Origin: Thermoplasmatota archaeon | GTDB taxonomy: Archaea > Thermoplasmatota > Penumbrarchaeia > Penumbrarchaeales > Penumbrarchaeaceae | DNA length: 54,411 nucleotides | Direction of reading: 5' to 3' | Assembly: GCA_965234725.1 (NCBI GenBank) | Contig: CBDDUX010000031.1 | Coordinates: 1-54,411 of the forward strand | Part shown: in pieces, positions 29,569 through 43,837 of the stretch | How positions within the stretch are numbered: the first letter of the stretch is position 1 | Layout: each line of letters starts with the position of its first letter | Program-made: the position numbers and the translations under genes | The notes under the pieces: model-generated | The model's input: the letters and a program-made list of their open reading frames with translations, nothing else | Told to the model about the DNA's origin: nothing | The model's database searches: none

Positions 29569-30198
29569 ATGAGATGGTTGAAGAAAAAAAAACCCGAGAA
29601 AATGGAATATGACAACATAGGTGTCAAGGACAGTTTGGTCGAGATGAAGGACCTGTCCGAACAGATAATCGATCTTTCTTATTCTGCTATTTTATTCGAC
29701 AGTTCGGATATCGCGTCCCAGGTCGATGAACTCGAGGAAAGACTGGATAAGCTCCTTTACAATGTCCGAATAGGTTTGATGCTTGCAGCCAGAAATCGAG
29801 AGGATGCTGAGCAATTGACGGGCATCCTCCAGGTGGCATCTGCAGCCGAGAGGATAGGAGATGCTTCTCAGGAACTCATGATGCTCTTCTCCGAAGGTGT
29901 CGAGTTCAGACCTTTTGCTCCGTTCTTCTTGAAGGATGGTGATGAGAAGATCTGGGCTATACGGATCTCCGAAGATTCGGATGTCGTAAATCGGCAGATC
30001 AATGAATTGCAGATAGAATCAGAGACCGGCTGCAGGATAATCGCTATCAAGAGGGGTCCTAAATGGATCTATGATATAGAACCGGATAAGAGATTGAAAG
30101 GTTCCGATGTCCTTATAGCCAGAGGGGTGGAGGATGGTTTGAAGGAACTGATCGCATATGCAAAAGGTGAGGTGAAATGGGGGAATTACAAGAGGTAG
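29569..30198 (+). CDS. PhoU-like helical domain + TrkA_C (RCK_C) protein
   Basis: LVEMKDLSE..IDLSYSA, ETG..IIAIKRG..WIY. Confidence 0.85.
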   Translation: MRWLKKKKPEKMEYDNIGVKDSLVEMKDLSEQIIDLSYSAILFDSSDIASQVDELEERLDKLLYNVRIGLMLAARNREDAEQLTGILQVASAAERIGDASQELMMLFSEGVEFRPFAPFFLKDGDEKIWAIRISEDSDVVNRQINELQIESETGCRIIAIKRGPKWIYDIEPDKRLKGSDVLIARGVEDGLKELIAYAKGEVKWGNYKR

Positions 30199-30779
30199 AG
30201 GATCCCATGACTAGGGTCATGGATATGTTCCTCGAGATGAAGGACACCTCTGAACTGATGGTGGACCTTGCCTATTCCTCACTACTCTACGATAACGATG
30301 AAATAGCATCGGAGGTGGAGCACCTAAATGGTCAGATCGATGAGATGGCCGGGCATCTCAAGAGGCTGGCAATAACTGAGGTGTCACAGAGGTCCCCGGA
30401 TGCAACAATAATGGTCCTCAAGCTTTGTACTTATATCACTTCCATCGCAGATGCGGCAATGTCAATTGCCGATGTTGTTCTAAGGGATATAGAACCCCAT
30501 CCTGTGATAAAGCAGTCCATTAAGGAATCTGATGTGTCGATCTTCAGGTTAGAAGTTAATCCGAAGTCGATCCTTGCCGGGAAGAAGATCGGTGATCTAA
30601 GGCTTGCTACAGAAACGGGAATGTGGCTGTTCGCAATAAAGAGGAACGTAAGATGGATCTATGGTCCCGAAGAGCATGATGTTATCCTTAAAGGAGATAT
30701 AATTTTCGTCAGAGGTCCTGAAGACGGCATGAAGAAATTGAAGGCTGTGGCCAGAGGAAAGGTCAGGAAACTTGAGTGA
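30177..30779 (+). CDS. PhoU-like + TrkA_C protein (tandem paralog)
   Basis: EMKDTSELMVDLAYS, ETGMWLFAIKR..RWIYGP. Confidence 0.85.
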   Translation: MGELQEVEDPMTRVMDMFLEMKDTSELMVDLAYSSLLYDNDEIASEVEHLNGQIDEMAGHLKRLAITEVSQRSPDATIMVLKLCTYITSIADAAMSIADVVLRDIEPHPVIKQSIKESDVSIFRLEVNPKSILAGKKIGDLRLATETGMWLFAIKRNVRWIYGPEEHDVILKGDIIFVRGPEDGMKKLKAVARGKVRKLE

Positions 30780-30822
30780 AAGGTTTTAAAAATAGGAACT
30801 ATATCCCCCTTTCCCACCAGCC

Positions 30823-30898
30823 GCGGGTGTGATGTAGCCTGGTATCATTCTAGCTTGCCAAGCTAGTTACTCGGGTTCAAATCCCGGCACCCGCACCA
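30823..30898 (+). tRNA. tRNA-Gly (GCC), CCA encoded, no intron
   Basis: Acceptor stem GCGGGTG/CACCCGC, anticodon arm CTAGC-TTGCCAA-GCTAG, GGTTCAAATCC T loop, discriminator A plus CCA. TTTTAAAAA promoter-like element upstream. Confidence 0.96.
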
Positions 30899-31044
30899 TT
30901 TTTCTTTCGTCAATTATACATCGAAACGAAAAATGGTGCTCAAAAATGATTACACACGACAAAAAATGATTGAGAAAGATTTCATCCGTTTTTTGTCTCA
31001 GGGGTAGAACTTAGATATCGTTAATTTCAAGACAGTTCTACCCC

Positions 31045-31063
31045 TCCCGGCACCCGCACCATT
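31045..31063 (+). repeat. 19-bp direct repeat of the tRNA-Gly 3' end (att-like)
   Basis: TCCCGGCACCCGCACCATT is identical to 30882-30900 and lies 163 bp downstream. Confidence 0.9.
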
Positions 31064-31181
31064 ACTTCAAATTTTTCTTTAATCTATGTAATGGTGCTTG
31101 GATTGACGTGAGGGGTTTGAAGGAAGTGAAATGGGGTTTGGGGGGAGAAACTCATTTGTTCCAAAGATCATATACTCCCTC

Positions 31182-31901
31182 ATGGATGATCTACCAGATC
31201 CTTCTTCGAAAAAGGTTGCACTGGTAACAGGAGGCTACAAGAAGATAGGCCTGGAGATCTCAAAGGCCCTCAAAGACATGGGGTATAATGTTATCGCAAC
31301 ATACAGGTCCGATCCTGACATCGCTCTGAAAGCATCCGAGGAAATTGGTTTTGAGGTCCTCCACGCAGATATGTCGAAGGAGGAGGACGTAAAGGATCTC
31401 TTCTCGAATCTCAGGTCCAGAGGTGTTTTCGTATCGGTCCTTGTGAACAATGTCTCATCGTTCCCCAGAGGTCCTCTGATCGGTATGGACCCTCATGAAT
31501 TCAGACAAGCTTTCGAAAGCTGCGTATATTCTTCCTTCTACTCGATAAATGAAGCTGTAAAGGATATGAGGAGAAACGTAGGGGGCTCGATAATCAACAT
31601 AGGAATGGCCGGGACCCAAGATGTCAAAGGGTACATTGACGTCGCCGCCCATGCATCTGCAAAGACGGCCCTAGCGGTCCTTTCAATGTCACTTGGAAGG
31701 GAGCTGGAAGATGAGGATATATCTGTGGACCTTGTTTCTCCAGGTTTGGTGGATGATCCTGAAAGGGATGATGATTGGAGGGAAAGGATGAGAAGGATAT
31801 CTCCTTCGGGGGATCTGGTTTCACGGACCGATATTGCGAGAGCGGTCATCACTCTCTTGAAGGATCGAAAGATCGGTGGAAGGATCGTTGAGATCATTTG
31901 A
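31182..31901 (+). CDS. SDR family oxidoreductase (pteridine reductase-like N-terminus, atypical active site)
   Basis: ALVTGG.KKIG, ADM, LVNN.S, G.IINIG, HASAK in place of YxxxK, VSPG. Confidence 0.85.
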   Translation: MDDLPDPSSKKVALVTGGYKKIGLEISKALKDMGYNVIATYRSDPDIALKASEEIGFEVLHADMSKEEDVKDLFSNLRSRGVFVSVLVNNVSSFPRGPLIGMDPHEFRQAFESCVYSSFYSINEAVKDMRRNVGGSIINIGMAGTQDVKGYIDVAAHASAKTALAVLSMSLGRELEDEDISVDLVSPGLVDDPERDDDWRERMRRISPSGDLVSRTDIARAVITLLKDRKIGGRIVEII

Positions 31902-32040
31902 TAATGATATGCATCATTCGAGGGTTTATGGGATATCCCGGGGATATCCCAATTGCCGCCTTTCTGGGACATAATTATAAAAAATGGAAACCTCCTGAGT
32001 GAATGATAGGCATTTGGGAAAGGATCTGTGAGGTGCGGTT

Positions 32041-32967
32041 GTGTGGTTAGGTCTGGGCGGAACGATACTGGGTCTTTTTATCCTGATCTGGGGTTCAAAC
32101 CTACTCATTGATGGGTCCGCTGGTCTAGCCAAGAAGAAAGGGATAAGCGGGCATGTAATAGGTTTGACCCTGGTTGCCACCGCCACATCCCTGCCCGAAC
32201 TGGCCACTGCCATTACAGCAACGATCTCGAACAGTCATGGTATTGCAATCGGTAATGTGGTTGGTTCAAATGCATTCAATATCGGGATTGTCCTGGCAGT
32301 TGGGGCTTTGATCATCCCCATTCTCCCTGATCGGTCCGCAACAAGGGACGGATTGATCGTGCTGGTTGCAACATGTATCTTTGCGATCTTCTCGGTGATA
32401 ACCGGTAGGGGTATCGGAAGGATCGAGGCTCTGATCCTCTTCTTCCTTTACGTCATCTATGTGTTCTACCTTATCAGGACAACAAAGATGTCAGGGGAGG
32501 TTGAGGTGGGAGATAGGTCCACATTGACCATGGTATTTATGATACTGGTAGGAACATTATTCCTCTTCATCGGTTCACCGATCCTTGTTGGTTCCGCCGA
32601 GAGGTTGTCCAGAGTATGGGGAATTGAAGATTCTGTAATCGCTGTCACCTTGATAGCGGCGGGGACCTCACTTCCCGAACTAATGGCAACAATTACGGCA
32701 GCGATCAAGGGTCATGAAGGTATTGCGGTCGGTAATGTCTTGGGATCGAACCTTTTCAATATTCTATTGATTCCGGGTATAGCAGCAATGATTCATCCTC
32801 TGGATATCAGCCCACTTATTGGACAGGCTCTGATACCGGGAATGTTGCTCCTCACTGCTCTGGCACTTCTCCTGACAACAAGGAAATTGGGAAGGAAAGA
32901 GGGTGTCCTTCTGATGATTGGCTTTTCCCTTTTCTTCGTTTTAAGTCTAAGGGATGTAATATTCTAA
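32041..32967 (+). CDS. Calcium/sodium (CaCA, YrbG-like) antiporter
   Basis: Duplicated alpha repeats ATSLPEL...GNVVGSN and GTSLPEL...GNVLGSN. Confidence 0.93.
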   Translation: MWLGLGGTILGLFILIWGSNLLIDGSAGLAKKKGISGHVIGLTLVATATSLPELATAITATISNSHGIAIGNVVGSNAFNIGIVLAVGALIIPILPDRSATRDGLIVLVATCIFAIFSVITGRGIGRIEALILFFLYVIYVFYLIRTTKMSGEVEVGDRSTLTMVFMILVGTLFLFIGSPILVGSAERLSRVWGIEDSVIAVTLIAAGTSLPELMATITAAIKGHEGIAVGNVLGSNLFNILLIPGIAAMIHPLDISPLIGQALIPGMLLLTALALLLTTRKLGRKEGVLLMIGFSLFFVLSLRDVIF

Positions 32968-43249: not shown

Positions 43250-43284
43250 ATGCCGGATGGTCCGAATTGGACCTCCGGCATTTT
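43250..43284 (+). terminator. GC-rich hairpin after the repeat-protein gene
   Basis: ATGCCGGA-T-GGTCC / GGACC-TCCGGCAT stem followed by TTT, just after the stop codon. Confidence 0.55.
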
Positions 43285-43331
43285 GTATGAAAATTCATGA
43301 AAGCGGGTTGTAATCCTTTTTCATACACCCG

Positions 43332-43750
43332 CAAAGCAGTGTCTCTAATTGACGATCTGTTTTGACCTTGGAATTACTGAGATGATCTCAACATTATCTA
43401 ATTTCAAGGCACGCACAATGGTGTATGTCAGTGACGATCCATTGCTGCTGTGTGTCGAAATTACGAGTTATTAATACATTTGACGCGAGTAATTTACGAC
43501 ATTCCTATTTTAATAATCGGGTCTTGACATCATCGATGGCAAGGTCAGCATAAAACCGAAGCCGAAGGCTGTTTTCTGCAATGATTTCGAAGTCACATAA
43601 CTTATTTGATTGACGAGACCTTGAAATTGCTGAACCCTATCCAATCTCTCTGAATTTCAAGGCATGCACAATAGTGCTTTCAATTGACGCTCTATTGTTG
43701 CTATGGATCGAAATTCCGCATCATATCGAATTGACGAAAGGAATTTACGA
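43332..43750 (+). ncRNA. Candidate structured non-coding element: two diverged three-hairpin units (43366-43501, 43619-43750) plus an extra hairpin at 43332-43364
   Basis: Conserved stems with compensatory changes, conserved bulges and TTGACG loops. No ORF of 60 aa or more. G-U pairs favour the + strand. Confidence 0.55.
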
Positions 43751-43837
43751 GCTCCTTTGAAAAAGGAGTGACTTACGAAAAAACCCGCTTAACATTTTCA
43801 TCCTATGTTGTGAGCATTTAACTCTTGAGGGTTTTTT

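Follow-up and report, generated by a model that had tools for sequence, protein, structure and literature searches.

In integrons, attC sites are hairpins that are conserved in shape and strand-specific while their stems vary in sequence, and the cassettes lie head to tail, each ending in the same short core. Tyrosine-integrase elements at tRNA genes are bounded by direct repeats identical to the 3′ part of the tRNA and leave the tRNA intact, while CIME-like elements, which have no integrase, are stacked at tRNA genes by tandem accretion. The filamentous phage CTX has an attP of folded single-stranded DNA and integrates at dif by exploiting Xer. Palindrome-associated elements derived from IS200/IS605 are non-coding, with subterminal hairpins on one strand and guide pairing between flank and interior; to our knowledge, IS200/IS605 elements leave no direct repeats of 15–22 nt. 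Within archaea, casposons occur at tRNA 3′ ends in Aciduliprofundum boonei, a member of the phylum studied here, where the T loop stands beside a duplicated segment of ~15 bp (PMC5137440). For Methanopyrus, a lineage-specific palindrome, CGTTA(N)9TAACG, has been reported just behind about half of the tRNA genes, with a proposed role in maturation (PMC5217627).

The locus compared with these systems lies behind the tRNA-Gly(GCC) gene in the window, i.e. the whole stretch of 54,411 nt that was analysed. The window is contig C31 of a 97.7%-complete archaeal genome (3.54 Mb in 114 contigs), labelled G000 in genome comparisons. Like attC, its hairpins have a conserved shape with free stem sequence. 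As in integron arrays, units lie head to tail and share a short core, and in sedentary arrays, too, many units resemble each other. Unlike attC, the units have no GTTRRRY core at their borders, the stem bases being GCACCA/TGGTGC, AGGGG/CCCCT, and similar. The shared core is 15–22 nt of a tRNA gene, the anchor is that gene and not an attI beside intI, most units carry no gene, and the host belongs to the archaea. An IntI-type integrase was looked for and not found; the genes flanking the locus are a PhoU/TrkA-C gene and a dehydrogenase gene.

Direct repeats identical to the tRNA 3′ part and an intact tRNA are shared with tyrosine-integrase elements, but the units encode no integrase and could only be non-autonomous relatives. 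CIME-like elements appear comparable in their tRNA-end repeats, intact tRNA, stacking, and lack of an integrase of their own; the units differ in being 10 to 100 times smaller (~160 nt), in consisting entirely of covarying hairpins, and in occurring as one family at more than 10 tRNAs. The fold predicted for Gly-type B units may recreate the duplex arms of the target around an unpaired centre (here 7 nt) much as the CTX attP does, although the target is a tRNA gene instead of dif and the element has no genes. Casposons differ from the units in their terminal inverted repeats, internal polymerase and Cas1, and tRNA register, as well as from the 22-nt repeats of the type B units defined below. 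The IS200/IS605-derived elements resemble the units in being non-coding, in their subterminal hairpins on one strand, and in their guide pairing, but the units have long direct repeats and the genome has no Y1 transposase. MITEs differ as well, since the left (TTTTTCTTTCG...) and right (...AGTTCTACCCCT) ends of type A do not form an inverted repeat and the direct repeats are 15–22 nt of tRNA. The Methanopyrus palindrome is likewise archaeal, lineage-specific, and directly 3′ of tRNA genes, but it is a single short motif without tRNA-end repeats or arrays. None of the known families compared fits the units fully, and a full-text search of the literature returned no account of anything comparable. 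The units have the appearance of a miniature mobile element of a new kind, stacked behind many tRNA genes in a single family of sediment archaea.

Two types of unit behind tRNA-Gly(GCC)

The original prediction saw a train of four hairpins downstream of the tRNA. All four inverted repeats are real and lie where it placed them (Table 1), and the TTGACG motif that it noted at 31103 is present. They are not four equal members of a train, however: together they represent a complete type A unit and a cut type B unit, both non-coding, with three distinct modules of one unit followed by the first module of a second. Three further features had escaped notice: a 19-nt direct repeat, the sharing of GCACCA between hairpin arms, and an inverted copy of the T arm.

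Table 1. Coordinates of the tRNA gene, its neighbours, the hairpin units, and the related 43.3-kb element in the window.
Feature	Position	Strand	Remarks
Upstream flanking gene	30177..30779	+	PhoU + TrkA-C domains
tRNA-Gly(GCC)	30823..30898	+	Intact, CCA encoded; ARAGORN; Rfam tRNA 60.1 bits
Direct repeat, copy 1	30882..30900	+	TCCCGGCACCCGCACCATT, 19 nt; tRNA position 60 to CCA, plus TT
Hairpin 1 of type A unit	30893-30939	+	GCACCATTTTTC/GAAAAATGGTGC, 23-nt loop
Conserved linker	30940..30957	+	AAATGATTA.ACAC; from 12-copy alignment A1
Hairpin 2	30958-30997	+	GACAAAAAA/TTTTTTGTC, 22-nt loop
Hairpin 3	31000-31045	+	AGGGGTAGAACT/AGTTCTACCCCT, 22-nt loop; abuts right repeat copy
Direct repeat, copy 2	31045..31063	+	TCCCGGCACCCGCACCATT; closes type A unit
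Hairpin 4 (S hairpin of type B)	31056-31097	+	GCACCATTAC/GTAATGGTGC, 22-nt loop
Truncated type B unit	31056..31121	+	Hairpin 4, TTGGATTGACGTGA, inverted T-arm copy GGGGTTTGAA; nhmmer type B profile positions 1-66, E = 7e-6
Downstream flanking gene	31131..31901	+	Short-chain dehydrogenase; start 10 nt past cut type B unit
Related 43.3-kb element	43281..43830	+	Not tRNA-linked; at least 8 further copies in genome

The last 17 nt of the tRNA gene, TCCCGGCACCCGCACCA, reappear 163 nt downstream (30882 and 31045), and these are the only two occurrences of the 17-mer in the entire genome. The stretch that separates the two copies of the tRNA 3′ end contains hairpins 1–3. In hairpin 1 as in hairpin 4, the 5′ arm starts with GCACCA, the final 6 nt of the repeat; in hairpin 1 this tRNA end is followed in the arm by TTTTTC. 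The inverted T-arm copy, at 31112-31121, could pair with TTCAAATCCC at 30876-30885. Folded as single-stranded DNA, positions 30876-31125 reach -46.1 kcal/mol, compared with -23.6 +/- 3.8 in 200 shuffles (z = -6.0), none of which matches this energy, and the predicted fold includes all four hairpins.

Type A units run from hairpin 1 through a conserved linker, hairpin 2, and hairpin 3 to 15–17 nt of the host tRNA 3′ end, for a length of ~153 nt plus the repeat. The copy in the window is complete: a covariance model matches it at 30893-31061 (166.9 bits, E = 8.6e-48), and its 163 nt contain no ORF. Hairpin 2 is the module with the highest sequence conservation (GAYNAAAAATGAT...CGTTTTTNRTC), with an 11-bp stem and a loop of ~19 nt across the family. 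Hairpin 3 has a variable stem sequence and a loop of the form T.GAT.ATCG..AAT...AC, and the loop of hairpin 1 holds a conserved TCGTCAAT. The alignment of 12 copies shows hairpins 1 and 3 with the same geometry, loop motif, and orientation. In the tandem pair behind tRNA Glu-CTC, the two units are identical save for hairpin 3, which is wholly swapped, showing that modules are exchanged and that point mutation is not the cause.

Type B units open with the S hairpin, which begins in or just after the repeat, and continue with (A)TTGACGTGA, the inverted T-arm copy, a variable hairpin with TTGACGATA in its loop, then a short A/T-tract hairpin, and finally the repeat. Their repeat is 22 nt long and begins inside the T loop. 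Hairpin 4 and the adjoining TTGGATTGACGTGAGGGGTTTGAAGG are the opening part of a type B unit that is cut 10 nt 5′ of the dehydrogenase gene. A partial type B unit beside the orthologous gene is also found in G004 and G003, two species of the genus.

Stem covariation, tRNA ends, and distribution

The structure of type A units is under selection: their stems change in sequence and remain paired. A structure-blind MAFFT alignment of 12 copies from G000 (A1), analysed with RNAalifold, yields the three hairpins with compensatory changes at 27 of 34 pairs. A second alignment (A2) holds 68 distinct copies from 60 sources; it was fitted to the structure of the model and leans towards pairing, with 95.4% of its cells paired, double changes at 32/34 pairs (12/12 in helix 1, 9/11 in helix 2, and 11/11 in helix 3), and 587 compensatory cells. 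These pairing values were reached in 0/500 shuffles of A2, and sliding the 3′ partner by 1–3 columns as a control lowers pairing to 44–51%. The structure-blind result from A1 concurs with that from A2.

The pairing is also strict. With two end pairs left out, G·T accounts for 0.92% and A·C for 1.64% of 2074 stem cells, compared with 8.2% G·T in tRNA stems (40 genes of G000)—i.e. G·T is nine times rarer in the units—and the mismatches show a bias to neither strand. A T5 run lies directly 3′ of the end of tRNA-Gly(GCC), where it would stop archaeal RNA polymerase. Searches of Rfam 15 returned only the tRNA at a gathering score; the units have no match at E < 1, and weaker matches (E 1.9–8.1) fall far under the gathering scores. 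The avoidance of G·T, the T5 run abutting the tRNA end, and the absence of an Rfam match together point to folded single-stranded DNA structures rather than RNA.

The association with tRNA 3′ ends that had been raised for this locus proves tight. At least one additional downstream copy of the gene's own 3′ end, on the same strand, is present at 13 of 40 tRNA genes. Homologous units, recovered by blastn and with a profile of 30873-31125, lie 3′ of tRNA Gly-CCC, Gly-UCC, Leu-GAG, Arg-GCG, and Glu-CTC, a B/A chimera lies 3′ of tRNA Glu-TTC, and further units adjoin copies of the tRNA-Ala and tRNA-Ser(TGA) 3′ ends. Each unit terminates in the 3′ end of its own host tRNA, and the right edge of the repeat tracks the gene. 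Specifically, CCA is present in the Gly, Leu, Arg, and Ser repeats, where the gene encodes it, and absent in those of Ala and Glu, a pattern that speaks against mature tRNA as the template. On the left, type A repeats of all lineages start at tRNA position 60/61, immediately 3′ of the T loop.

Units also carry sequence complementary to the end at which they sit. The last 4–7 nt of the repeat and the next ~5 nt always pair with a segment 22–25 nt further in. For the Gly, Leu, and Ser lineages this pairing is hairpin 1 itself, while in the Ala, Glu, and Arg lineages an additional S hairpin pairs with the unit's own repeat end and hairpin 1 is kept as a separate stem. For example, seven of the eight units that begin with GCGCCA end in a repeat closing ...GCGCCA or ...GCGCTT, and the eighth (L028) is cut before its repeat. 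The inverted T-arm copy of type B units is similarly tRNA-specific: it reads GGGATTTGA at Gly and Leu genes, GGGATTCGA at those for Arg and Glu, GAATTTGA at Asp, and GGGGTTCGA at Lys. A tRNA-specific inverted T-loop copy no more than 330 nt downstream is found at 11/32 tRNAs compared with 94/2000 random windows. Modelled as single strands, the units would place a tRNA-derived core, with 7–10 nt unpaired, between two stems; for the Gly-type B unit, the predicted fold restores the two duplex arms of the tRNA-gene end and leaves 7 nt open at the centre.

As the original prediction proposed, the hairpins are members of a dispersed family; its copies are homologous, and their loops are almost constant in length. 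The covariance model finds type A units in 24/24 genomes of the Thermoplasmatota family, with 4–29 copies each and more than 320 matches in all, usually in tandem behind tRNA genes and often spaced at 162–215 nt. Only 3/13 genomes from other families of the class have them. Exact unit patterns were also found in uncultured Thermoplasmatales/Thermoplasmatota genomes, and viral contigs gave 0 matches.

Individual units are gained and lost at the same locus among relatives, a comparison that had also been suggested for this locus. The tRNA-Gly(GCC) array is different in each of the seven species compared, and arrays at this gene in different species contain unrelated unit types. Arrays also differ between G000 and G004, the closest well-assembled relative. 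The lone 5′ module at tRNA-Asp in G000 is accompanied by one extra 161-nt unit in G004, and the lone 5′ module at tRNA-Leu(TAG) corresponds to a full B unit, an A unit, and the module. tRNA-Lys has no unit in G000 and a full B unit in G004, and tRNA-Arg(GCG) has four B units in G000 and two in G004. About half of the G000 tRNAs with enough downstream sequence have no module, so the units are not a universal part of tRNA loci.

Fewer than 100 nt are assembled 3′ of 8/40 tRNA genes in G000, probably because tandem unit arrays break assemblies. Contigs from four DNA runs were compared over 29800-32200; most pieces that touch the units come from paralogous tRNA loci, the loose ends belonging to tRNA-Gly(CCC), Gly(UCC), and Leu(GAG), and for this reason the joints in these runs are not evidence of excision here. 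Neither excised circles nor empty-site reads nor single-stranded forms were observed.

As a side observation, gene cassettes bounded by tRNA-end repeats occur at tRNA-Ala on contig C28. Their ends are of a different "type C" and they have no S hairpin, and they were rejected as examples of the same element.

Candidate enzymes and the origin of the units

A family-wide search identified a 243-aa tyrosine recombinase without the N-terminal core-binding domain. It lies directly 3′ of arrays at tRNA-Val (G012) and tRNA-Ser (G008); in G012, the repeat preceding the gene opens an S hairpin with a 22-nt loop, and the contig ends ~425 nt past the gene. Among its eight loci, two adjoin an array, five are cut by a contig end (within ~20–435 nt of the gene; the G004 copy is at the far end of its contig), and one, the copy in G000, sits in an AT-rich island with no tRNA nearby. 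Searching species genomes returned only seven loci, on Thermoplasmatota-type contigs plus one filed under a Deltaproteobacteria bin, and viral contigs yielded no relative. This recombinase is the best candidate enzyme for moving the units, although the case is suggestive only.

G000 has seven tyrosine recombinase matches, and its PF00589 matches do not adjoin arrays; no recombinase was found in or next to the units of the window or next to any array in G000. Matches to PF00589 at E <= 1e-8 occur in only 15/24 family genomes, whereas units occur in all 24. The Y1 transposase (PF01797) has 0 matches in G000 and TnpB none above the cut-off. The genome further encodes one RT gene, on contig C47, and two Cas1 genes; one of the latter, of 407 aa, is on contig C59, ~1.1 kb 3′ of tRNA-Leu(CAG). 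Cas1 was found in only 5/24 family genomes.

We infer, with a probability of roughly 45%, that the units are integrative mini-elements without coding capacity, that their hairpins fold into an attachment site, read by its shape around a tRNA-derived core, and that they are moved in trans. Such elements, of ~150–220 nt, would use the 3′ end of a tRNA gene as attachment site, each unit bearing a copy of the terminal part of the host tRNA gene, which starts near position 60 in type A and near position 55 in type B. Since a unit carries this copy, insertion would keep the tRNA intact and leave the unit bracketed by direct repeats, and repeated insertion together with unequal exchange between repeats would give tandem arrays. 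The hairpins would form in DNA from one strand, with a stem on either side of the tRNA-derived core. In type A, the core would be flanked by hairpin 3 to its left and hairpin 1 to its right; in type B, the two flanking stems would be the inverted T-arm copy and the S hairpin. A recombinase supplied in trans would then read the fold by shape, as integron integrases read attC, and carry out strand exchange with the tRNA gene. The best candidate for this role may be the small tyrosine recombinase, carried on larger elements that insert at the same arrays.

This mini-element reading would account for the repeats, the intact tRNA, the arrays, the strand-specific and strictly Watson–Crick covariation, and the complement of the target end borne by each unit. 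Several observations weigh against it. One family sits at more than 10 different tRNAs, for which a sequence-specific integrase would need a retargeting step that has to be postulated. The uniform left edge of type A at position 60/61 would also fit a ruler-like target-site duplication. Units occur in more family genomes than PF00589 matches do (24/24 compared with 15/24), no recombinase adjoins arrays in G000, and excised, empty-site, and single-stranded forms were not seen.

If true, the mini-element reading would place the units among the smallest integrative elements known, consisting of an attachment site and nothing else. It would also extend to archaea a site-specific recombination that reads DNA shape, so far seen mainly in bacterial integrons and a few phages. 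The family provides many natural variants of one fold (68 distinct copies aligned out of more than 320 matches), and the clear rule linking unit and tRNA, together with a short candidate enzyme, makes the mechanism directly testable with oligonucleotides.

A more far-reaching possibility, which we regard as unlikely but worth stating, is an archaeal platform akin to an integron. The tRNA 3′ ends would serve as fixed insertion sites. A recombinase that reads shape would capture, stack, and shuffle hairpin units there in the form of folded single strands, and occasionally also single genes bounded by the same repeats, as at tRNA-Ala on contig C28. With a complement of the target end in every unit, the choice of target would be written in nucleic acid and could be rewritten for a new tRNA.

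Quite unlikely, in our judgement, is that the units are cis-acting parts of tRNA loci kept by the host, no longer mobile and amplified only via unequal exchange. They might be terminator or insulator modules, or spare or decoy tRNA 3′ ends that absorb integrating elements. Their presence in all family genomes and at the same tRNAs across genera is consistent with this, as is the T run after the tRNA end with its expected effect on the polymerase, and the G000–G004 differences at tRNA-Asp and tRNA-Arg are whole-unit changes in copy number. Host-kept modules are, however, difficult to reconcile with the half of tRNAs that have none despite enough downstream sequence, or with the unrelated unit types at one tRNA in different species. 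Homologous units at more than 10 tRNAs must also have moved at least in the past, and the three covarying hairpins with conserved loops are left unexplained. Even as fossils or host-kept parts, the units would be an undescribed, family-wide feature of tRNA loci in abundant marine-sediment archaea.

A Cas1-type integrase (casposase) is an improbable source of the repeat. It would read the T loop as "leader" and duplicate the next ~15 bp as its target site, and the units would be non-autonomous casposon passengers. The position of the repeat, right after the T loop and 15–17 nt long in every type A lineage, is the best point in favour of this origin. It agrees with A. boonei, whose casposase duplicates 15 bp adjacent to the T-loop segment of tRNA-Pro (PMC5137440), and the 407-aa Cas1 behind tRNA-Leu(CAG) fits as well. 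The strongest objections are that the type A ends have no terminal inverted repeats and that the type B repeat is 22 nt long and includes T-loop bases. A duplication would, moreover, have no need of the unit-encoded complement of the flanking repeat end, and Cas1 occurs in only 5/24 family genomes.

We give similarly little weight to a single-strand transposon of the IS200/IS605 or another HUH-nuclease style, in which subterminal hairpins would be read on one strand and internal guide pairing would set the left cleavage site. Such a transposon would suit the common geometry, loop motif, and orientation of hairpins 1 and 3, the pairing of the last 4–7 nt of the flank with an internal segment, the strictly Watson–Crick stems, and the orientation-specific insertion. 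A 97.7%-complete genome with neither a Y1 transposase nor TnpB above the cut-off speaks against it, as does a repeat that matches each tRNA over its full length and not over 4–6 nt only. IS200/IS605 elements are also not known to leave direct repeats of 15–22 nt.

Small structured RNAs, made from a promoter of their own or by read-through from the tRNA, are an equally improbable source of the hairpins. Three covarying hairpins with conserved loops within ~150 nt would suit an RNA, and the CGTCAAT motif in type A loops has its complement in the TTGACG of type B and of the 43.3-kb family, which would permit loop–loop pairing. The ninefold rarity of G·T relative to the tRNAs of the genome, with no strand bias, the T5 run directly after the tRNA, and the missing Rfam match all argue against RNA, and no conserved TATA-like box is seen by eye in alignment A1.

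Priming by mature tRNA followed by reverse transcription, brought to mind by a 17–18-nt repeat that resembles a retroviral primer-binding site, was rejected on account of the Ala and Glu repeats without CCA, and a CRISPR-like array, a C/D-box or H/ACA sRNA, and a bacterial -35 box (TTGACA-like) were dropped by eye.

The 43.3-kb element and spacer lengths

The hairpins at 43.3 kb had been assigned to the same family as those behind tRNA-Gly(GCC), and this holds for shared modules only. The left end of the element is the hairpin TGTATGAAAA...TTTTCATACA and its right end finishes in a T run; between them lie two internal B-like modules (43364-43499 and 43617-43750). The element belongs to a family separate from the units, whose copies have left and right ends of their own, contain 0–2 internal modules, and are not linked to tRNA genes. 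Modules common to both loci are nonetheless apparent. The hairpin at 43712-43748 matches, in inverted orientation, hairpin 1 of tRNA-Ala-linked units (84% over 38 nt, a weak E of 5e-4), and the composite motif CGCACAAT...ATTGCTGCTG with a T-loop-like TCGAA is present in three copies of the 43.3-kb family and five tRNA-linked type B units.

The original prediction also linked the two loci through a 12-mer, CTTTCGTCAATT (30904-30915), that is the reverse complement of AATTGACGAAAG (43729-43740). The match is exact, but it is not significant alone and is not evidence by itself, because 249 pairs of reverse-complementary 12-mers separated by 1 kb or more occur in the window, compared with ~91 in shuffles. 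The spacer lengths bear out the expected peaks, near 17 and 22–24, only weakly or not at all. Among 522 perfect inverted repeats with arms of at least 10 nt in the whole genome, there is no peak at 17 but a moderate excess at spacers of 19–25 (101/522 compared with ~63 if the distribution were flat), and the 43.3-kb and tRNA-linked families account for much of this excess.

Modular variation in hairpin units, a related dispersed element family and genes at other tRNA ends

Downstream of tRNA-Glu(CTC) in the source genome, two hairpin units, i.e. non-coding units bounded by tRNA 3' end copies, stand in tandem. Hairpins S (a hairpin added in units of the Glu lineage), 1 and 2 are identical in the two, while the stems and loops of hairpin 3 differ completely; this difference is an exchange of the whole module.

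The same genome holds a family of modular non-coding elements, including one in the window, with fixed left and right ends, 0–2 internal B-like modules and a T run that closes the right end. Copies usually sit where two genes converge, or else follow terminator-like hairpins.

Features in the source genome
Feature	Contig	Positions
Tandem units at tRNA-Glu(CTC)	C5	2559-2943
Modular element	window	43281-43830
Modular element	C3	107415-107752
Modular element	C69	12535-12793
Modular element	C63	27137-27330
Modular element	C28	207-370
Modular element	C27	
Modular element	C100	
Modular element	C77	
Single-gene stretches at tRNA-Ala	C28	5400-14413
tRNA-Thr integrase locus	C102	6823-8345
tRNA-Thr integrase locus	C44	20287-21807
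Cas1 gene at tRNA-Leu(CAG)	C59	1-2456

Genes at other tRNA ends

Three single-gene stretches bounded by tRNA-Ala 3' end copies encode, respectively, a methyltransferase, a 1061-aa FG-GAP protein and a 1085-aa peptidase C1/lectin protein. Their ends (type C, roughly 90 nt) are unlike those of hairpin units, no integrase is found in these stretches, and their organisation resembles that of cassettes.

At two paralogous loci, tRNA-Thr precedes a 173-aa ORF and then a 310-aa tyrosine integrase, all in one orientation; hairpin units are absent from both loci, and a further copy of the tRNA-Thr end was not found on either contig. Just downstream of the tRNA-Leu(CAG) 3' end, at a contig start, an AT-rich ORF accompanies the gene for a 407-aa Cas1, an arrangement that looks like a casposon inserted at the tRNA end, with its remainder beyond the contig.

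Assembly breaks and the small recombinase

Genome-wide, the assembly continues for less than 100 nt past the 3' end in 8 of the 40 tRNA genes, and contigs of relatives with the small recombinase (the 243-aa candidate mover of units) likewise stop right after its gene. Short-read assemblies are probably broken by the tandem arrays of units.

One contig assigned to a Deltaproteobacteria bin carries the gene for a relative 65% identical to the small Thermoplasmatota recombinase. This assignment is probably a binning error; possibly the recombinase was transferred instead.
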